Assembly (NCBI GenBank): GCA_963677485.1
Contig: OY781964.1
Location: forward strand, 2,816,001 to 2,880,000
Reading direction: 5' to 3'
Source of the DNA: Armatimonadota bacterium
Lineage (GTDB): Bacteria > Armatimonadota > HRBIN16
Length of the DNA stretch: 64,000 nucleotides
Below the pieces are notes generated by a model. That model was given only the letters and a program-made list of their open reading frames with translations, was not told where the DNA came from and did no database searches. This document shows, in pieces, positions 16,484 to 54,070 of the stretch (the stretch's first letter is position 1; each line of letters starts with the position of its first letter). Both the position numbers and the translations under genes were made by a program.

Positions 16484-16511
16484 ATAATATACTATTTCTA
16501 TAGTTTGTCAA
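16484..16511 (-). promoter_or_regulatory. sigma70-type promoter of the efflux operon
   Basis: Minus strand TTGACA (16511-16506), 16 bp spacer, TATTAT (16489-16484). Confidence 0.65.
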
Positions 16512-18170
16512 TAGTATCTTACCAACCATATTTTGAACACGGTGTATAGAATATTCTGATATTACGCACCACACAAAGCGTTAGGCACAACGATCTGGCG
16601 AATAGCAAGTGCTGCCATGATGATACGCTTGCCAAGTGCAGTGAGGTAGTATTTGTAGCGTTTACCGCATTTTTTAACGAGCCGGAATACTCGGCATCGC
16701 TTGATGAAGTATGATATCTGAGAGCTGGACATCTGCGGTAAGGCTTTTTGAAGCATACGGTTTGTGATCCCGCTGATGCATCCCTCTCCGCGAGCAAGTG
16801 CAATGAGACATTCCAAATCCTTCTTGAGGAAAAGGTTGAATCCTCGATACGAGCGATGATCACGGGTGGTCGAGGTCGCGATTTTGATGATCTGATGTTC
16901 ACCATCGCTGTTGTCATCAAGGGCGGAAAGAAAGTCAAGATATCTGTTGTTTGCAGATAATAACAGTTCCCTCAATGGAGGAAGGCTGTAGATGGTCTTT
17001 TGCATAGGGGCGTATTTAATCTCAGTCGTCCCATCATGATGTTCTACCTCACGGTAGTGTTTAAATTCAGAGACGTCATTCACAGTCGTCTCGATACGCA
17101 AGATTATCCCTTGCTTGTCATACATTTTGATAGAAGCCCATCCCATGTAGTGTTTGATGCGCGTGCCTTGTATGCGGCGATCGAACTTGTAGTCAGTGCC
17201 GATCTCAGCGAGTGTTCGCCCATCAAGTTTCTTACCAAGAAACATCGCGATAGACTCTGGCGTTACCGTATGTATCGCTGTTTTGACTAGATTATCGTAG
17301 ATGGCTTTGAGGTCTTCGGCGCGTTTGAACACGATGTCTGTAGCATATTCCACCTGCATTAGCGACCAATGATATGAATTGTCAGCAAGCCGTATCACGG
17401 GGCAATACATTCTGGCAAATGCATCCAGCGCATGGTGCAGCTTATCAGCAGGAAAAGCGTCTGCCAGCCTCTGAGCACAGCTAAAGTCGTCGATTTTTAC
17501 AAAGGCGTTGTCCAGTGGAGTGAAAACTACTCCCTCGGATTGAAGGCAATGCGCGAGATAATTGTGTCCATTACAATAGAATTGCAGACGGAAGGGCACC
17601 CAGGTCGGAACTCGTAGATAGCACAGTCCAAACTCTGCATCGATGAAATAGAAGTAGTAATGAAGACACTTGGTCTCCTTGATATTCAGCCGGGTTTTGT
17701 GGGTAATCTTGTCGTGCCACGGGGTGTATGCAGGACATTTTTCCAACACTGAGAATATGTGGACGAGACCGGGGTGACACCCTCGACTACTAATGATCTC
17801 TTTGATGCGGTCTTCTTTTCGAAATGAAGAGGCACGGCGTATATACTCAATTTCAATGCTGTTGGTAACGGCAAGGCGTTCCGCATTGGCTTTGATCTCA
17901 TCTCGTAGAGGTTCGGCAAATTCCTTAGGAAAGTCAAATAGCCTGATGTTGCGTTGATGAAGATAGATGCCCATTCCGTCGCTATGACACCAGCCTGGGA
18001 TTGTACCGGTGATAACTATGCGGTCGAAGCATGAATATACCCCAGCTATCTGCTTTGCATAGCGTTCTTGAAGTGATGTCATTCTGGGCAACCTCACGAA
18101 AGGGTGTTTGAATGTATATTACGTGGCGAATGCAATCATTCCTTTTTTGGTTGCGGCTAAGCCGCCTTAG
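16512..18170 (-). mobile_element. Putative TIR-less insertion element (candidate rolling-circle type)
   Basis: Single ORF splitting a tetR/efflux divergon. Terminal hairpin GCGGC-TAA-GCCGC (18153-18165). TAG at both inferred junctions (16512-14, 18168-70). No TIR or TSD seen. Boundaries are approximate. Confidence 0.6.
16562..18097 (-). CDS. Putative transposase with Rep_trans-like motifs and C-terminal wHTH (often mis-annotated as a MarR regulator)
   Basis: 511 aa; QVEYATD, IKMYDK, LRIETTVN in the order of the Rep_trans RxDxAxD / YxK / RxE motifs; wHTH-like C-terminus ...YKYYLTALG. Confidence 0.7.
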   Translation of the reverse strand: MRLPRMTSLQERYAKQIAGVYSCFDRIVITGTIPGWCHSDGMGIYLHQRNIRLFDFPKEFAEPLRDEIKANAERLAVTNSIEIEYIRRASSFRKEDRIKEIISSRGCHPGLVHIFSVLEKCPAYTPWHDKITHKTRLNIKETKCLHYYFYFIDAEFGLCYLRVPTWVPFRLQFYCNGHNYLAHCLQSEGVVFTPLDNAFVKIDDFSCAQRLADAFPADKLHHALDAFARMYCPVIRLADNSYHWSLMQVEYATDIVFKRAEDLKAIYDNLVKTAIHTVTPESIAMFLGKKLDGRTLAEIGTDYKFDRRIQGTRIKHYMGWASIKMYDKQGIILRIETTVNDVSEFKHYREVEHHDGTTEIKYAPMQKTIYSLPPLRELLLSANNRYLDFLSALDDNSDGEHQIIKIATSTTRDHRSYRGFNLFLKKDLECLIALARGEGCISGITNRMLQKALPQMSSSQISYFIKRCRVFRLVKKCGKRYKYYLTALGKRIIMAALAIRQIVVPNALCGA

Positions 18171-18276
18171 GACTAGCAGAAATGAGCTCATGAAATGGTA
18201 TGAGCAAACTGCAGTAGGTAGCTGACAGGCAGAATGAAGTAAAATGGGGTGGGCAGGAATACACATGGAGATTTGC

Positions 18277-31407: not shown

Positions 31408-31693
31408 CGGAGTGGGCTTCCTTTCGGATGGTGGTCTTATGTGTATTATGGTGCATCTCTCGTGCTGGCGCAAAGGGGGGAGGGAATGGCCTCACGCGGA
31501 GACGCGGAGGGCGCGGAGGGGGAGAGGGGAGCACGAGGGGAACGAAATTAACTCACGCGAAGACGCGAAGGCGCGAAGGCGCGAAGGGGAAGCCGTTGCA
31601 GACTGAACAGCCCTGACCGGGGCTGTCGTACATAAGGATTGCGGTTGCAGATGGCGATCACTCTTGCCGGTCTGGCAGGCGCGGGGCCTTCCC

Positions 31694-32012
31694 ACGCCCG
31701 CCGGAACGCGGGCCGGTAATGATCAGCGATGGGTGACAGTGCCCGTACCGGGACGAAGTCACGGACGGGCCACGGAACCCGTCGCCAAGTGCCGGTAGTG
31801 TGCATCGCAGGTGATCAGCCACGCTGCCGTGGGTTTAGTCACCCACACGACTACGTTCCGGGAGCTGGCACCCCGGAACTGCGTCCTGTGCGGGTTCCTG
31901 CACCGCACGGCTGATCAGTATCGGCCGGCGTCGCTTCGCTCCTCCCGGCGCAGGGATGCCCATGTCACCCATTGGTCACTACGAATGACCATCGCCAGTG
32001 CTGAGTAGTTAC
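31694..32012 (+). ncRNA. Candidate structured ncRNA or folded ssDNA element, copy 1
   Basis: Near-duplicate at 37928-38245; multiple helices with compensatory changes between the copies; no credible ORF. Confidence 0.55.
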
Positions 32013-32065
32013 GGATGTTTATCATCCAACATATTCAGATTATGGTGACATTAAGATGCAAATGG

Positions 32066-32124
32066 CCCTCTATCCGAAAAGCGTCTACGACGTCAACCTC
32101 CGCCTACGGCGGATAGGATAGAGG
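32066..32124. repeat. Hairpin with nested CCGCC-TAC-GGCGG palindrome
   Basis: CCCTCTATCC...GGATAGAGGG arms enclosing TCCGCCTACGGCGGA. Confidence 0.5.
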
Positions 32125-32253
32125 GTCGCACTACATTTTAGTGAAACCACCACTCATCATCTATTAATCCGGCATGTATTAGCTGATTCCAGTGTCGAAG
32201 CCACCTGGGGTTCTGGTGTATGCGGCCTAACTGATCGTCGGCCAATCATTGCC

Positions 32254-32676
32254 CTAGAATGGTCCGTACGACTTCCCATGACGTGCGTCTTTTAGCGAAA
32301 CCAAGGGGAAGTTATTCTCAACAGTGATCGCGATCAGATCATTCCCTTTGGCATTCGACAGCCATATGCCCGCTCCGTCGTGTCCAGTCGCTGCCCCTTT
32401 TCTCGGACTCCCGTTGGAGTCCATCAGTGACAGTCCTGGCTGTTTATTTGCTACTCCCAGAACGACCGCCGGTCGACCATTATCGTATTTTAGCATTAGG
32501 CTACCCGATCCATTGGTAGTACCCAGGGTTGCGACTACCTTGTTTTGGCTTACTATATCAATCTGTTGAACCTTAAGCTGCCGTACAGGACGTTCCATGG
32601 CTATCATGGCACCGACGTATCCGGCCAAGGCACCACAGATTAAAACTGCGGTATACATTTTTACTCGTTCATTCAT
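32254..32676 (-). CDS. Hypothetical membrane-anchored beta-rich protein
   Basis: ATG 32676 with GGAG RBS, N-terminal TM helix, repeated L-x-L-x-D-x-x-G units. Confidence 0.65.
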   Translation of the reverse strand: MNERVKMYTAVLICGALAGYVGAMIAMERPVRQLKVQQIDIVSQNKVVATLGTTNGSGSLMLKYDNGRPAVVLGVANKQPGLSLMDSNGSPRKGAATGHDGAGIWLSNAKGNDLIAITVENNFPLVSLKDARHGKSYGPF

Positions 32677-33099
32677 CCGACTATCTCCTTGCATCACAGT
32701 GACGATGGTGAAGATCAGACTGTGTATCAACCATGCGATTTGTGCTCATAACATGGTATTCAACGCATGGTTTACAGAATCCTTCTTTCAAATACGCGAA
32801 TTTGAATATGACGCATCACTCACGGATAATGAGTCCGCTGTTAGCTCTAGATGAATGGCCAAAAATCATCAGTGGGAAACCACCGGAGATTGCTCCACAG
32901 CTGGTGTGATATGGCGCGGTTGGTAGAAGTCGCGTCTTACCTTGCATTTACTCCGTGGGGAGGATGGAACGGACGTCATATCACAACCGCCAGCCCACCA
33001 TGCGCCAGCTCCCCTCCTGACTCCTCTTCTCCTCTCCTCCTATCTCCCGGTATACTATCCTTAAGCGTTCGCCATTCCACCCAATAAGGAGCTCACACT

Positions 33100-34122
33100 A
33101 TGCGGCAAGCGATCATGACTTCACCGGGAATCATCGAGTTTCGCGACGTCCCTACGCCTACACCTGGACCAGGGCAGGTGGCGATGCGCATCCAGCGGAT
33201 CGGCATCTGCGGCAGCGACATGCACGTCTACCACGGCACGCACCCCTTCACCAGCTACCCCATCGTGCAGGGCCATGAGTATAGCGCGGTGATTGAGGCC
33301 ATCGGCCCCGGCGTGACCGGCATCCACATCGGCCAGAAGGTCACCGCAACCCCGCAAGAGGTCTGCGGCCAATGCCGACCTTGCCTGCGCGGGCAGTATA
33401 ACGTCTGCGAAAAGCTGAAGGTTCGCGGTTTTCAGGCCCCCGGAGTGGCGCAGGATGTGTATGTGACCGATGCGGACAAGATCGTGCCGCTGCCGGGCAA
33501 CTTCACACTGGAGCAGGGCGCCTTCGTGGAGCCCGTAGCCGTAGCGGTTCACAGCACCGGCCGGGCAGGAAAAATCAAAGGTGAGAATGTGGTGGTGCTG
33601 GGCGCAGGGCCCATCGGCATCTTTGCGGCCCAGGCGTGCCGAGTCCGCGGTGCCAAGAAGGTGCTGATCGTCGACCTCAGCGACTACCGCCTCGACATCG
33701 CCAAGCAGGTGGGCATCGATGAGGTCAGCAACGCCTCGCGTGAGACGCTGCCCGAGGCCAGCCGCCGCGTGTTCGGTGACGAGGGCTTCGACCTGGCGAT
33801 GGAGGCCGCGGCTTCCGAGCAGAGCATGAACGCTGCGATTACCACCATCGGCAAAGGCGGCACGATCGTGGTTCTGGGCGTGTTCGGCAAGAAGCCAAGC
33901 ATCGATATGGCCAACATGGGTGAGCATGAGATCAGCCTGGTCGGCACGCTGATGTATCGCCATGAGGACTACGCAGAGGCGGTGCAGTGGATCGCGGACG
34001 GACGTATCAAAACCGCTCCGCTGGAGACCAAGCACTTCCCATTTGAGCAGTTCCTGGAGGCCTATCACTTCATCGAGCAATCCGCCGATAAGTCGATGAA
34101 GGTGTTCGTGGACCTCGTATGA
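33100..34122 (+). CDS. Zinc-dependent (sorbitol/threonine-type) dehydrogenase
   Basis: GICGSD, GHE, CGQCRPC...C, GAGPIG; AAGGAG RBS. Confidence 0.93.
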   Translation: MRQAIMTSPGIIEFRDVPTPTPGPGQVAMRIQRIGICGSDMHVYHGTHPFTSYPIVQGHEYSAVIEAIGPGVTGIHIGQKVTATPQEVCGQCRPCLRGQYNVCEKLKVRGFQAPGVAQDVYVTDADKIVPLPGNFTLEQGAFVEPVAVAVHSTGRAGKIKGENVVVLGAGPIGIFAAQACRVRGAKKVLIVDLSDYRLDIAKQVGIDEVSNASRETLPEASRRVFGDEGFDLAMEAAASEQSMNAAITTIGKGGTIVVLGVFGKKPSIDMANMGEHEISLVGTLMYRHEDYAEAVQWIADGRIKTAPLETKHFPFEQFLEAYHFIEQSADKSMKVFVDLV

Positions 34123-34985
34123 CAGAAGCCAAACCCATCGTGTGCGGCATCGGGGAGCTGCTCTGGGATGTGCTCCCCCAGGGGAAGGCTCTGGGCGGAG
34201 CCCCGGCCAACTTCGCATTCCACGCCTCCTGCCTAGGCGGCCAGAGCACCGTCATTAGCCGCGTCGGCTGTGATGAACTGGGCGACGCGGCCATACAGAT
34301 ACTGGCGGAAAACGGGCTCTCATCGGACTATGTGCAGCGTGACTCGGAGCACCCCACCGGCATCGCCGAAGCGCAGTTGGATGATGAGGGTGTGGCGCAA
34401 TTCGTCATCCATGAGGGGGTAGCGTGGGATTACATCTCATGCAGTCCGGAGGCTCTGAAGCTCGCAGAAAACTGCCAGATCGCCTGTTTCGGCAGCCTGG
34501 CACAGCGCAGTCCTGTCAGCCAAGCCAGTATCATGGCTTTCGTGGGGGCGATGCCGAAGGAGAGTATCCGCGTGTTCGATGTGAACCTCAGGCAGCACTA
34601 CTACAGTCGGGAGCTGATCGAGCAGTCGCTGAAGGTGGCCACGGTCTTCAAAATCAGCGATGCGGAGTTACTCACCGTCACCAGGCTACTGGGCTGGCCG
34701 GATGCCGAACCCGAGCCGCTGCTGAGGCGGTTCTGCGGTGAGTATGATCTGCAAATGTGCGCCTACACCCGAGGAGCGCACGGCAGCCTGCTGGTCACCG
34801 GTGATCAGACCGCGGAGCACCCGGGCTTGAAGGTCAAAGTGGTCGATACCGTCGGAGCCGGCGACGCCTTCACCGCGGCGATGAGCATGGCGTTGTGGCG
34901 GGGGGAATCCCTGGAGGCGATCAATGAAGCCGCGAACCAGCGCGGTGCGCTTGTTTGCGGGCAAAAAGGCGCGATGGGCGGGTGA
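34119..34985 (+). CDS. PfkB family carbohydrate kinase (fructokinase-like)
   Basis: GELLWD, GGAPANFA, FDVNLR, DTVGAGDAF; ATGA overlap with the dehydrogenase gene. Confidence 0.93.
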   Translation: MTEAKPIVCGIGELLWDVLPQGKALGGAPANFAFHASCLGGQSTVISRVGCDELGDAAIQILAENGLSSDYVQRDSEHPTGIAEAQLDDEGVAQFVIHEGVAWDYISCSPEALKLAENCQIACFGSLAQRSPVSQASIMAFVGAMPKESIRVFDVNLRQHYYSRELIEQSLKVATVFKISDAELLTVTRLLGWPDAEPEPLLRRFCGEYDLQMCAYTRGAHGSLLVTGDQTAEHPGLKVKVVDTVGAGDAFTAAMSMALWRGESLEAINEAANQRGALVCGQKGAMGG

Positions 34986-34991
34986 TTGTGG

Positions 34992-35216
34992 GGGTGGGAT
35001 ATGGCGTGCCGTGCCCACCATGATCATCGGACGGATCTGACGGATCGGTCCGATTAAACGTACTAGGGGCGGTTCGCGAACCGCCCTTGGGCGTGGGGAC
35101 CACGCCCCTATGATCGAATAAACGGTTGTGGGGCGGTAGGGGCGGGGTCACCTCGCCCAAAAAACATCGTTCGGCTGGGTTACCCCGCCCCAGGGCATGG
35201 CACGCCATGCCCCTAC
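34992..35216. repeat. REP cluster between convergent genes
   Basis: ATCGGACGGATCTGACGGATCGGTCCGAT; AGGGGCGGTTCGCGAACCGCCC (35065-35086); GTAGGGGCGGGGTCACCTCGCCC (35136-35158); GGGCATGGCACGCCATGCCCCTAC (35193-35216). Confidence 0.85.
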
Positions 35217-35234
35217 GTGCGTCCTATACCGTGC

Positions 35235-37439
35235 CTACACCACCTGCTGGGTGCGGTTGATGATCATATCCTGCCACTGCTTGTTCAACGTGGCGAAGCG
35301 GGCGCTCCATCCAGCCACACGAACCGCGAGGTTAGGGTACTTCTCCGGGTGTTTCTGAGCATCAAGCAGCACGGCGGAATCCACGACATCGATGTGCAGG
35401 AAGCAGCCACCCATCTTCTGGAAGCCCTTGAGCAAGCTGACCATGGTCTGAATGCCCTTCTCTCCCTTGACGCTGCTGGGCATGATCTTCAACTCAAATG
35501 CGCCGATGCCGGGCATGTTGGTGAAGTCCATCTTACAGTAGCTGCACAGAGCCGCGGTCGGCCCGTATTTGTCGGTGCCGGGCGATGGCGAGAAGTTGGT
35601 GGCCAGGATGTCGCCAGCATGATGCCCATCGGCTGTAGCTTTGCGGAGCGGGCTCCACTCGATCTCGCGACCAAAGGTGCTGATACCCGCCGGGCGGAAC
35701 ACGCCTTTACGGAACTTGGTCTCGGCGACCAAACCGGTGAAGCTGTTGTATACCCGCTGCGCCATGGCATCCGCCTCATCGTTGTCGTTGCCGTATGCGG
35801 GCACTCGGCTGGCGATCAGCCGTCGCAGGCTTTCGTTGTCGCGCCAGTCGTTGCGCATGGCGGTCACAATGTCATTCCAACTAATCAGCTTGGCATCATA
35901 AACGGCATGTTTGATGGCCATCAGGCTGTTGGCGGTGTCGGCCATCCCGCCGGCATGGCAGGCCAGTTGGCAATATTTCGATCCGCGGTCATTGTAATCG
36001 GCGGCTTTTTCGATACAGCCTTCGACGAACAGCGAGGGAACCGTGGCCGGTAAGCCGCCTATTTGCCAGGCATCCGCGATGTCGTGATGCCACTTCACGT
36101 GGGTAGCCAGACGCTGCTCGAATGCCGCATACAGGTTCTCGAAACTGGCATACTGCGGAATCAACGCGTTGGCGTTTGTGACGCCCATGGCGTCCTGAAG
36201 CAGTTGCAGGGTATCAAAAGGCACGTAGGTGAAGGCGGTCTTGCCCGGCACCAGCACCTCCCAGCAGCCATCATTGGTGAAGTTGCGCGCCTCTTCCAGC
36301 GGATATCCCAGCTTCGTCATCGCCTCAATCACCACCGGCTCGTTGTAGGTGGCGATGATCCCGCCGCCCAGTCGCTGCACCTGTGCGATGCGTTTCAAAA
36401 GCAACTCTGGCGATTTGGGGTTCAGACGCACCGCGATCGGGAAGTCGCTCATGCGAAGCTCTTCGACCACATCCAGCACGAGGTAGGTGACCGGGTTGGT
36501 GACCTCTACGCCTTTTTCGTCGATCCCACCCAATACGATGTTCTGGTAGAACTGCGCGTCACCGGAGCCGGGGCCGACAGGGCGCGTCCACTCCGCACCC
36601 ATTAGCCAGAAGTGCGCCACCAGCTCGCGGGCTTCAGCGATGGTGATCTTACCCGCATCGAGGTCTTTGGCAAGCAGGGGGCCCAGCATCTTATCGAACC
36701 GGCCGATACCGCTCCAGTTGCCGCACAAACGGGTCCATGCCCAGGTGAGATGCAGTGAGAGCACCGCCTCAAAGAAGTTACTGGGGGGCAGCTCGGGAAC
36801 GCGTTTCATCGCGGCCACGATCTGTGTTTCGCCGTTTTTGGCTGCCAACTCCATATTGCGTTTGTGCCAAGAACCGTAGGCGTCCAGGCAGATCCGCATC
36901 GACTCCAGGTAGTCGCGCTGTCTCTTGCTGAGGTCTGTGTCTTTCAGACGGGCTTCCAGCTTCGCGCGGATGGCGCTGTGACCGGATTTTAGGGCCTGTT
37001 CGTAGCCGAAAGTGGTGTGGCTGACGCTACTCTGGTTGTATAGAGGTACCGAATGCCCGGCGGCCTCCAGCACGGTGGCACTGCCAATCAGGCGCATACC
37101 GGGTTCATACCGGAGGGGGGCATTTTCGGAAATCAGCCGGATGCTGTGCGCATACTTCATGTATTCGCTCATACCGGTGACATCGACTTTATCTTCCAGC
37201 TTGAAGGGCAGAGGCTTCATCTCGCGGCCCCATTCGCCCATCACCGCCTTGGTGGCGAGACGGATGGTGTCATCGCAGAGGTGCATTTGGTGCGGCAGGG
37301 TGACCACAGGCGTGTTTGCCGACCCAGGAGCGAGTGTCTGTGCGGCACCCTTCTCCTTGACGTCAGCCACCGCAGCTGCGCCTAATATGCCTGTACCGAT
37401 AGCCGTCGCCCCAGAAAGTAGGAACTTGCGTCGATCCAT
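35235..37439 (-). CDS. Glycyl radical enzyme (PFL family) with N-terminal Tat signal peptide
   Basis: Gly loop VRVAGWS, Cys loop NDGCWE, GRFDK, ATADG, LLDAQKHPEKYPNL; N-terminus MDRRKFLLSGATAIGTGILGAAAVA with GGGAGG RBS. Confidence 0.9.
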   Translation of the reverse strand: MDRRKFLLSGATAIGTGILGAAAVADVKEKGAAQTLAPGSANTPVVTLPHQMHLCDDTIRLATKAVMGEWGREMKPLPFKLEDKVDVTGMSEYMKYAHSIRLISENAPLRYEPGMRLIGSATVLEAAGHSVPLYNQSSVSHTTFGYEQALKSGHSAIRAKLEARLKDTDLSKRQRDYLESMRICLDAYGSWHKRNMELAAKNGETQIVAAMKRVPELPPSNFFEAVLSLHLTWAWTRLCGNWSGIGRFDKMLGPLLAKDLDAGKITIAEARELVAHFWLMGAEWTRPVGPGSGDAQFYQNIVLGGIDEKGVEVTNPVTYLVLDVVEELRMSDFPIAVRLNPKSPELLLKRIAQVQRLGGGIIATYNEPVVIEAMTKLGYPLEEARNFTNDGCWEVLVPGKTAFTYVPFDTLQLLQDAMGVTNANALIPQYASFENLYAAFEQRLATHVKWHHDIADAWQIGGLPATVPSLFVEGCIEKAADYNDRGSKYCQLACHAGGMADTANSLMAIKHAVYDAKLISWNDIVTAMRNDWRDNESLRRLIASRVPAYGNDNDEADAMAQRVYNSFTGLVAETKFRKGVFRPAGISTFGREIEWSPLRKATADGHHAGDILATNFSPSPGTDKYGPTAALCSYCKMDFTNMPGIGAFELKIMPSSVKGEKGIQTMVSLLKGFQKMGGCFLHIDVVDSAVLLDAQKHPEKYPNLAVRVAGWSARFATLNKQWQDMIINRTQQVV

Positions 37440-37618
37440 CGTAGCCTCCCGTGTTTGTGTGCAAACAGGTGATTGATTACCTTGATTATACCCCATATTC
37501 GTAACTACTAAGCCCTAAATAGCAATGTCCGGGGCGGTCTGCCGGATAGCCGTACTGTCACACCTGGGCTGGCAGCTTATGAAAGGCCATCAGCCCACGC
37601 TGCCGCGGGTTTTACCAC

Positions 37619-37846
37619 CAGTCTATTACCCACAAGTCCAGATTGGGATCGTATCGACCATGTACCGCGACATAAATGTCTCGGCTATTGATCATCAAGC
37701 CCGCTAAACCGGGCTGCGGAGCTCCTTGCCGACAAAGATAACGTTAATTTAGACTGCTTCAGCAGTCTTGGTGTTCAATAGCCGAGACATTTATGTCGCG
37801 GAATCGGTGACCTACTGGCCATGCAATATTTGTGGGTAATAGACTG
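37619..37846. mobile_element. Intact MITE with 17-bp TIRs and 11-bp target-site duplication
   Basis: CAGTCTATTACCCACAA...TTGTGGGTAATAGACTG flanked by GGTTTTACCAC (37608-18, 37847-57); internal perfect 27-bp inverted repeat. Confidence 0.9.
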
Positions 37847-37927
37847 GGTTTTACCACCCCGGAAACGTGCTTCCTTCACCGCGCGTCTGATGGGTGACAG
37901 CCAGCAGACGGGGGCCGGGCCTACCAA

Positions 37928-38245
37928 CGCCCGCCGGAACGCGGGCCGGTATTGATAAGCGATGGGTGACAGTGCCCGTACCGGGACGCAGTCACGGACG
38001 GGCCACGGAACCCGTCGCCAAAGGTCAGTGGTGCTGATTGTAGGCGACTAGCCACCGTGCCACGGGTTTAGTCACCCACACGACTACGTTCCGGGAGCTG
38101 GCGCTCCGGGAACTGCGTCAAGTGTGGGTTCCTGCACCGCGTGGCTGATCATTAGCGGCCGGCGTCGCTTCGCTCCGGCCGGCGCAGGAGAACGTCGCGA
38201 CGCATGCGGAATAATGAATGACTATCTCCAGAGCTGAGTAGTCAC
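37928..38245 (+). ncRNA. Candidate structured ncRNA or folded ssDNA element, copy 2
   Basis: Homologue of 31694-32012. Confidence 0.55.
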
Positions 38246-38353
38246 CCAAATACTATTAGTATAGTGGGTAAATGAACACAGGGTTTATGTGGCAGTTTGA
38301 CAGGGAATAGGACCGCTCTTGAGTTCAATGCAGCCCGTACTACTGATACGACC

Positions 38354-38437
38354 GTAGGGGCGTCCCTTGTGGGCGCCCAAAACGTTACTTTGTTGATAGT
38401 TAGTGTTCTTTAGGGCGCCCACAAGGGACGCCCCTAC
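38354..38437. repeat. Inverted REP doublet (REPIN-like); intron insertion target
   Basis: GTAGGGGCGTCCCTTGTGGGCGCCC (38354-78) and its exact reverse complement (38413-37). Confidence 0.9.
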
Positions 38438-39179
38438 GTGCGCCTGCAAGCGTACGCGAACAAAGAGGTGCAATTCCTCTTCGAGGCCACGCCAACTCTG
38501 GCCTTGTAGTCGGCAGTAACTGCGTCACCGCGAGGTGGGGTGGAGAGCAACTGTTGGCGAGTGACCAGTCCGTAGGATAACGAACCCGTTTCGGCCGCGT
38601 AGAACCAACGAGCCAGCGTAGGAATGGTGAAGTTTGTGCTGTGAAAACAGTGCCTGTTATGCTTGAGAGTGAGCGTATAGAGCAGTGATGGGGGTTGCGA
38701 GGTGCTTGGGGATGGAATGGTCACAAGAGGTCGCGTAAGAGAAGCAGGGAGATCTGCCTGCAGTAGTGGCGATAATAAGTTCGTTGCAGGCAGAAGTCAG
38801 AGCGCCCATAGTAGCGTTGAAGCGTCTGTAATGGATGTGGAGCCAAGGGAGCGCAGGAAGGTAGATCCGTGAAGTCTCAGCCACCGAATATAGCTCCGCG
38901 CGAGAAGTGCCTAAAAAAAGGCTAAACAAGCGGAAACAACTAGCAGGCGACTGCTCAGCCATCGGTGGACTGGACAAATCGGATGTTGGTGCCCCATCAT
39001 ATGGGGGCAAAGAAGGCTGTCGCCTTCAATGCTGAGTATAGGTGTTTACACTACAAACATCCTGTGCAAAGAATCACCAATCCTCAAATGAGGTAACACT
39101 ACCAACTGGAGAGCCGTGTGCGGGAGAACCGCACGCACGGTTCGGAGGGAGGGGGAACGAAAGTTCTCCCTACCCCTAT
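38438..39179 (+). mobile_element. ORF-less group II intron (probably bacterial class E-like)
   Basis: 5' GTGCG; domain V GAGCCGTGTGCGGGAGAACCGCACGCACGGTTC (39111-43, AGC triad); domain VI ending CCCTACCCCTAT; 742 nt with no RT ORF. Confidence 0.93.
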
Positions 39180-39239
39180 GACCAGTTACTTACAAGATCG
39201 GTCGGATCTGGCTGATCCGACCGATACACAGGTTGTGGC

Positions 39240-53896: not shown

Positions 53897-53972
53897 GCCC
53901 CTGTAGCTCAGCGGATAGAGCAACTGCCTTCTAAGCAGTAGGTCGGAGGTTCGAGCCCTCTCGGGGGCGCCA
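53897..53972 (+). tRNA. tRNA-Arg (TCT)
   Basis: GCCCCTG/CGGGGGC acceptor stem, anticodon loop CTTCTAA, GGTTCGAGCC T-arm, encoded CCA. Confidence 0.96.
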
Positions 53973-53992: not shown

Positions 53993-54070
53993 GGCGGCTA
54001 TAGCTCAGTTGGTTAGAGCGCCTGACTGTGGCTCAGGAGGTCGTGGGTTCAAATCCCATTAGCCGCCCCA
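53993..54070 (+). tRNA. tRNA-His (GTG)
   Basis: G-1:C73 pair, anticodon loop CTGTGGC, GGTTCAAATCC T-arm, encoded CCA. Confidence 0.96.

Follow-up and report, generated by a model that had tools for sequence, protein, structure and literature searches.

What are the two closely similar, strongly folded segments that stand in direct orientation in one stretch of an Armatimonadota genome? The stretch analysed here, called the window, is 64,000 nucleotides (nt) long and belongs to a bacterial genome of 5.22 Mb assembled in one contig (G000; the window is C1:2816001-2880000). G001 and G002 denote the other two genomes of the same genus. An earlier note, made from the letters of the window alone, had described the segments as a two-copy element with crossing helices, and had proposed either an undescribed large noncoding RNA (ncRNA) or ribozyme, or a mobile element folded as single-stranded DNA (ssDNA). 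Our analyses support the second proposal and not the first. The copies probably belong to a lineage-specific mosaic repeat family, extragenic and rich in hairpins, of the kind of the repetitive extragenic palindromic (REP) sequences, the bacterial interspersed mosaic elements (BIMEs) and the REP doublets forming hairpins (REPINs). A mobile element folded as ssDNA is supported by compensatory changes in hairpins, by presence or absence at orthologous sites, by a loop in common with REPs that flank genes for REP-associated tyrosine transposases (RAYTs), and by a Y1 transposase gene within a unit. High copy number, modularity, restriction to one genus, occurrence in both orientations, and the lack of both wobble asymmetry and pseudoknot covariation argue against a large ncRNA or ribozyme.

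Copies, modules and genomic distribution

Copy 1 (31678-32012) and copy 2 (37911-38245) are direct repeats on the plus strand, with 83% identity across 335 nt (BLAST, E 1e-94). Their alignment contains three ungapped blocks, in which 31678-31876 matches 37911-38109 (87% identity), 31872-31954 matches 38106-38188 (88%) and 31983-32012 matches 38216-38245 (87%). Both are composite repeats with the module order A-B-C, as judged from the repeat alignment and BLAST, and for copy 1 also from membership in the nhmmer matches. The description of two copies of ~300 nt was borne out, with a 5′ end lying ~16 nt further out than claimed; the status of a two-copy element was not, as at least 121 loci were found in G000. 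Every complementary segment that had been named is present in the sequence. The change from GCCGTG:CACGGC in copy 1 to GCCACG:CGTGGC in copy 2 was confirmed, as were the CGCTTCGCT hairpin in both copies and their common ending GCTGAGTAGT(T/C)AC. The end of copy 2 is GCTGAGTAGTCAC (38233-38245).

The earlier note had been unable to assign the element to an RNA family, and this holds after an Rfam scan: no family reached its gathering score on either copy, even among matches with E values up to 10. The only match inside a copy under that relaxed limit, sR46 at 38196-38239, scored 16.3 bits versus a threshold of 50 and was taken as chance. Across the whole window, gathering scores were reached only by two tRNAs and by the domain V-VI of a group II intron (39109-39179). 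A leader of paralogous genes was also considered and rejected, the two 753-amino-acid (aa) open reading frames (ORFs) that adjoin the copies being unrelated, one GH42-like and the other a glycyl-radical enzyme. A sigma-54 promoter in the TGGCAC segment was dismissed by eye, as the spacing is off and the segment differs between the copies.

A BLAST search of G000 with the element yielded 65 matches, and a more permissive blastn search yielded 124 high-scoring segment pairs in 84 clusters. Two rounds of nhmmer gave 217 matches for module A and 99 for module B (both strands, overlaps counted). After removal of overlaps, 224 module matches in 121 clusters remained, amounting to 25,844 bp of G000. 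Coverage of the query was stepped, with internal blocks present in 20 to 70 copies and the last 55 nt in 4 G000 copies only. These steps delimit module A (query positions 16 to ~175), module B (147-286) and the tail, module C (287-343). Modules were seen singly and in the arrangements A-B, B-A and A-B-A. Related shorter units form head-to-tail arrays of up to 7 matches with a period of 215-230 nt.

Gene context was assessed using crude gene calls (longest ORFs of at least 100 aa, greedy choice, 3,731 genes). Almost all clusters (110 of 121) lie outside these ORFs, and in 119 of the 121 all modules are on the same strand. With respect to the flanking genes, all four arrangements are found (co/co 26, anti/anti 41, co/anti 29, anti/co 25). 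Counting from the cluster listing, we found a stop codon at most 35 nt before the start of 27 of the 121 clusters. One run of genes on a single strand, at C1:1011000-1029000, has six family clusters in its gaps, all antisense to the genes, and four of the six start 10-23 nt past a stop codon.

The family was matched in all three genomes of the genus and was absent from the 38 further relatives searched, 15 of the same family and 23 of the same phylum. Occupancy of orthologous sites differs between the sister genomes G000 and G001. Copy 1 is missing at its G001 site, where ~430 nt of unrelated AT-rich DNA is found instead; copy 2 is kept there at ~91% identity, with a 31-nt 5′ deletion. G001 has repeat islands of ~590 nt and ~660 nt that contain the family, at sites that measure 18 and 93 nt in G000. 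The site of a further G000 copy (2077687-2078023) is occupied in G001 by another member of the family, oriented the other way. None of the polymorphic sites showed a target-site duplication.

Hairpin structure and covariation

We aligned 27 near-full A-B copies, comprising 10 from G000, 10 from G001 and 7 from G002. A full unit of ~260-335 nt is a chain of hairpin modules, given here with the coordinates of copy 1 on the plus strand. P1 (31696-31713) is a small terminal hairpin, GCCCGC-CGGAAC-GCGGGC, whose helix 1 is 97.5% paired in the 27 copies. P2, or hairpin 1 (31726-31785), was delineated by RNAalifold and consists of a base stem GCGATGGGT / ACCCGTCGC with inner hairpins (helices 2-4, 94-100% paired). 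Its pair 52:151 is U-A in 11 copies, U-G in 11 and C-G in 5, with no unpaired cell. The variable hairpin V (31786-31825) has a stem that differs among copies and a semi-conserved loop (...ATCGCAGG...), according to the folding of 54 V regions; its position is the site of a Y1 transposase gene in G001. P3, or hairpin 2 (31826-31911), also delineated by RNAalifold, has GCCGTG:CACGGC as its basal stem, and its helices 5-6 are 95% paired. P4 (31924-31949) is a REP-like terminal hairpin, GCCGGC - loop GTCGCTTCGCTCC(N) - (G)CCGGC, inverted relative to P1 and with helix 7 98.7% paired. The C tail (31956-32012), found in the four G000 copies mentioned above, comprises a small hairpin and the terminal motif GCTGAGTAGTTAC (32000-32012).

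P1 corresponds to a REP-like hairpin that in array-type units has the GGAGCGAAGCGAC loop, which is partly deleted in P1. The window-type P1 has lost 8 nt of this loop, which is kept in full in two of the 27 copies, c1594 and G1_L052. Array-type units have no right arm and only P1 of the two terminal hairpins, and the P2-V-P3 core is kept in window-type and array-type units alike.

The RNAalifold consensus is a nested rod, with an outer stem formed by columns 4-38 and 226-269, followed inward by P2 (39-98), V and P3 (139-225). In this consensus the inverted hairpins P1 and P4 are paired with each other; they share the loop motif only in c1594 and G1_L052. Together with TGATCAG linkers, P1 and P4 make up the long outer stem that the earlier note had drawn.

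Two structural models were compared with 500 shuffles over the 27 copies. In the local-hairpin model, 95.8% of the cells are paired, and no shuffle was as high. Its covariation score was 0.058 versus 0.042 in shuffled alignments, and changes on both sides affected 8 pairs (shuffled 2.9) and 21 cells (shuffled 4.5); none of the 500 shuffles reached the observed value for any of these measures. The number of further pair types did not discriminate, 388 of the 500 shuffles being at least as high, and an all-against-all column covariation analysis was too noisy for use. The crossing helices of the proposed pseudoknot fared no better than chance, with 88.0% paired cells and 471 of 500 shuffles at least as high. 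The pseudoknotted structure gave a covariation score of 0.042 versus 0.046 in shuffled alignments, and 6 pairs changed on both sides versus 4.8. One crossing helix, H2, has a C-A end pair in 5 of the 27 copies and no pair changed on both sides, and another, H3, has C-C at its end pairs in 17 copies and A-C in 10. The segments of these helices pair locally instead, TGGGT with ACCCG in P2 and ACCC with GGGT in P3. Local pairing is favoured because column 43 (T or C) stays paired with column 94 (G or A), as U-A in 11 copies, U-G in 11 and C-G in 5 with no unpaired cell, while the end pairs of H2 and H3 break. Covariation in this deeper alignment is therefore present for the local hairpins and lacking for the crossing helices.

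The compensatory change noticed between the two window copies is in the P3 basal stem. There, pair 206:286 is G-C in 24 copies and A-U in 2, and pair 207:285 is C-G in 12, U-A in 3 and other in 12. The A-U at 206:286 is common to copy 2 and its G001 orthologue and therefore represents one event. In P4, pair 307:322 is C-G in 18 copies, U-A in 5 and U-G in 2. Constraint lies on the local P4 hairpin and not on the outer stem, because the change from C-G to U-A in five copies would give G-T plus C-A in the outer stem.

A preference of G-T wobbles for the plus strand, claimed from the two copies, did not withstand the larger alignment. G-T cells numbered 88 versus 55 A-C cells, and 62 versus 55 once a single pair (U-G in 26 of 27 copies) was left out. 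The fold energy of the alignment was near-equal on the two strands (-196.0 versus -200.3 kcal/mol).

Shared motifs, transposase genes and possible origin

The 9-mer CGCTTCGCT occurs 152 times in G000, 99 times with a stem of at least 5 bp, and 53 of the 152 occurrences are inside or beside the family. Hairpins of three classes, which differ in their stems, have it as their loop. In class 1, the stems are CCAGGGGT or CCACGGGT, followed by CTATAAGAATC, and these hairpins flank the RAYT genes at ~376 kb and ~4122 kb. Class 2 is the P4 hairpin of the composite-repeat family, and class 3 is the P1 hairpin of array-type units, on the other strand.

The terminal 13-mer GCTGAGTAGTTAC is also found beyond the family. 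It has 11 exact copies in G000 versus ~0.2 expected by simple arithmetic, and many near-exact copies are intergenic, each at the outer end of a repeat, with several different families represented. ATG is often in front of it, and GAAT comes next in five ends. The window contains three matches to this motif versus 0.83 expected, a number reached by 7 of 100 shuffles. Two are the ends of the copies. The third, found by motif search at 37501-37513, is inverted (GCTTAGTAGTTAC on the minus strand) and forms the outer end of another repeat module; the same combination of module and motif ends other loci. This match and the one at 38233-38245 enclose the complete repeat island that lies upstream of the glycyl-radical enzyme gene. 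Two inverted copies of GCTGAGTAGTTAC similarly bracket a G001 island in locus L039. Directly past the terminal motif in L039 (~2035-2050), upstream of a gene start, stands GAATGATAATCATTA, which we take to resemble the Fur-box consensus.

Y1_Tnp genes of the IS200/RAYT type numbered three in G000, four matches in G001 and none in G002. One of the G001 genes (locus L075, 1411-1845, minus strand) encodes a 144-aa Y1_Tnp ORF (63.9 bits, E 2e-17) and lies inside an array of the family. By nhmmer, the unit on the left extends to model position 142 and that on the right begins again at 99, which places the V hairpin on both sides of the gene. The earlier note had suggested looking for a linked protein gene; among the four G001 Y1 loci, L075 alone has family matches at E below 0.1. 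The L075 gene is single-copy and distinct, its product being 25-39% identical to the G000 RAYTs and at most 40% identical to relatives in other phyla. The nearest family match to a G000 RAYT is ~2 kb from the gene at ~4122 kb.

We read the copies as REP/BIME/REPIN-like elements because their features fit published descriptions of REP/REPIN-RAYT systems, namely that of Pseudomonas fluorescens SBW25 (PMC3337134, PMC3116915). The PMC3337134 excerpts describe REPINs as inverted REP doublets able to form hairpins in ssDNA or RNA, with spacers that vary yet remain hairpins and with tandem arrays, and report that a genome has several distinct RAYTs of ~500 bp, each present once and associated with a repeat family of its own. 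Like these systems, the family is extragenic, high-copy and lineage-specific, and consists of short imperfect palindromes. Two inverted hairpins may form a long hairpin comparable to that of REPINs, the variable middle stays a hairpin, and units are also found in tandem arrays. Y1 genes of ~150 aa are present as several distinct types, each single-copy, and one of them is embedded in the family in G001. Unlike in REPIN-RAYT systems, that gene sits inside a variable hairpin with units in direct orientation around it, the window's genome has no cognate Y1 gene, and the window-type left hairpin is short of 8 nt of loop.

The BIMEs of E. coli and the BOX elements of Streptococcus pneumoniae are mosaic intergenic repeats built from few module types, and REPs in BIMEs alternate in orientation. 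The present family resembles both in its modules A, B and C in variable number, its intergenic location and its strong predicted secondary structure, and differs from them in having no sequence relation and in its head-to-tail arrays. It also recalls IS200/IS605 insertion sequences (ISs) and their gene-less derivatives, the palindrome-associated transposable elements, in that the L075 Y1 gene lies between direct-orientation V hairpins, no target duplication was seen, and a gene-less unit looks like a left and a right end joined at V. Unlike IS200/IS605, the Y1 gene is single-copy, each unit has extra hairpins, arrays are formed, and G000 has no PF07282 match above the cut-off. With this lack of a match, a TnpB/omega-RNA scaffold was ruled out. 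A CsrA sponge, suggested by GGA motifs in the loops, was discarded as well, as no CsrA match was found in G000.

A mechanism consistent with these features can be proposed. The modules would fold as hairpins in ssDNA, which is presumably the form that matters, and a Y1 HUH transposase of the IS200/RAYT type would copy them, or would have copied them, to new intergenic sites. The enzyme that moves the units may be that of L075 or a related one, and the terminal motif is a putative recognition or cleavage site. Local amplification could then have produced the head-to-tail arrays. What looks like conserved RNA structure might be the footprint of selection for hairpins recognized by the enzyme. 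As G000 lacks a cognate Y1 gene, its copies may be relics, or may have been moved in trans by other RAYTs.

Several observations weigh against the REP-like reading. In G000, none of the three Y1 genes is flanked by the family within 1.5 kb, and tblastn with the L075 protein found no orthologue there, only other RAYTs at 36%, 39% and 25% identity. A BLAST comparison of the family with the flanks of the three G000 RAYTs returned nothing beyond a 15-nt match, and the link between the two is a common loop motif of 9-11 nt. At the G000 site orthologous to L075, the same stop codon is followed directly by one A unit; the site also contains unrelated sequence and a copy of a 1.66-kb IS. The units at L075 are in direct orientation on both sides of the Y1 gene, and the G000 RAYT at ~4122 kb has inverted REPs. 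Units of 215-335 nt with four or five hairpins are large compared with the 89 bp given for REPINs in the excerpts of PMC3337134. Among the polymorphic sites examined, no clean pair of empty and filled sites fixed the exact ends, the islands being composite. Clusters beside stop codons are antisense in 19 cases versus sense in 9, a weak excess that could hint at a role at the transcript level. Finally, the genus is represented by three genomes, one of them in 260 contigs, the gene calls were crude, and the covariation statistics ignore the kinship of the copies and use a structure derived from the same sequences, which inflates the scores.

Among the other explanations, we consider it unlikely that the copies are host-serving structural elements spread by recombination, such as terminators, protectors of mRNA 3′ ends or protein-binding sites. 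Roles of this type are named for REPs in excerpts of PMC3479197, and the 27 of 121 clusters beginning within 35 nt of a stop codon, the runs of elements after successive genes at 1011-1028 kb and the conservation of copy 2 at its G001 site (~91% identity) would all fit. Against this stand the occurrence of both orientations after stop codons (19 versus 9) and the differing occupancy of sites in sister genomes. A host function is in any case compatible with a REP-like family. Somewhat less credible is a classical miniature inverted-repeat transposable element (MITE), whose outer stem would be a terminal inverted repeat of ~35 bp bound by a DDE transposase encoded elsewhere. The pairing of columns 4-38 with 226-269 by RNAalifold is what such termini would give, and the family is dispersed, intergenic and variably present between genomes. 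However, the polymorphic sites bear no target-site duplication, halves are found alone and as B-A, array-type units lack the right arm, and covariation prefers the local P4 hairpin over outer-stem pairing. A search of G000 for an A start and a B end 450-6000 nt apart found only two pairs; one is a tandem copy, and between the ends of the other lie genes for an Nramp protein, a hydrolase and a product of unknown function, but none for a transposase. G000 yielded no autonomous element whose ends match, and the ends of the 1.66-kb IS are unrelated.

RNA-based explanations were also weighed. We see a slim chance that the P2-V-P3 core is a transcribed, structured RNA within a REP-like shell, acting as a scaffold or guide for an HUH enzyme or as a cis element on neighbouring transcripts; if so, Armatimonadota would have a mobile structured RNA of a new class. 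Slimmer still is the prospect of a family of genes for a large, pseudoknotted ncRNA or ribozyme on the plus strand. The complementary segments do exist, compensatory changes occur in the local hairpins, the core is retained in both unit types and Rfam has no name for it. Yet the pseudoknot helices do no better than shuffles, with end pairs disrupted in 5-17 of the 27 copies; neither strand is favoured by the wobbles (62 versus 55 cells), and the two fold equally well; the 121 loci occur in both orientations relative to genes; the modules are separable and come in either order; the family is confined to one genus (0 of 38 other relatives); and copy 1 is missing from its G001 site. The reading of the element as part of a group II intron was rejected, although an Intron_gpII match (39109-39179, 58.7 bits) places a domain V-VI ~860 nt downstream of copy 2. 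G001 has copy 2 but not window segment 38311-39196, the other intron copies of G000 match window 38431-39180 only and not the element, and there is no such Rfam match by copy 1.

If the copies are indeed REP-like repeats, ~26 kb of G000 should be annotated as a single REP/BIME-like repeat family and not as RNA genes, with comparable lengths in its congeners, and "covariation" between any two copies would be a property of such repeats. The family is distinctive for its unusually large units with many hairpins and for a 13-nt end motif found across several families. One loop motif is carried on three stems in three repeat classes, and two of these classes go with different Y1 genes. In a sister genome a unit still contains a Y1 gene, which the window's genome has lost. 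The genus would thus be usable as a natural system for the co-evolution of REP families and RAYTs outside proteobacteria.

Neighbouring repeats, introns and insertion sequences

Between the GH42-like gene and copy 1 lies a G/A-rich periodic 8-mer repeat (31489-31590) composed of CGCGGAGG / CGCGAAGG words. Similar words also flank the RAYT at ~4122 kb and one GCTGAGTAGTT end (C1:2488441).

Upstream of copy 2, window 37619-37848 is a palindromic element of ~230 nt with arms at 37665-37715 and 37751-37801. It is missing at the orthologous G001 site, and more than 40 copies with 88-97% identity are present elsewhere in G001. As its arm sequence flanks a G000 Y1 gene (C1:2991965-2992447) on both sides, it looks like the REPIN family of that RAYT.

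Downstream of copy 2, window 38311-39196 is an 886-nt insertion relative to G001, composed of a ~130-nt repeat and an ORF-less group II intron. The repeat has a 30-bp hairpin (38353-38438), and more than 20 related copies are present in G000. The intron, of ~745 nt, comes directly after this hairpin repeat, with GTGCG at 38438 and the domain V-VI at 39109-39179 (58.7 bits); we take its insertion directly after a hairpin to be reminiscent of class C introns. G000 has six matches to group II domain V-VI. Among the copies, one of 750 nt at C1:109418-110167 shows 99.6% identity, two extend over ~1.86 kb, and one is split by the 1.66-kb IS.

This AT-rich IS is represented in the window at 16509-18171, one of 22 near-identical copies (at least 99.2%). 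Several of the copies are 0.2-2 kb from repeats of the family. The family as a non-autonomous partner of this IS was rejected, the IS ends being AT-rich and unrelated to it. The two tRNA genes of the window are on the plus strand at 53897-53969 and 53994-54067 (Rfam, 68.7 and 74.2 bits).

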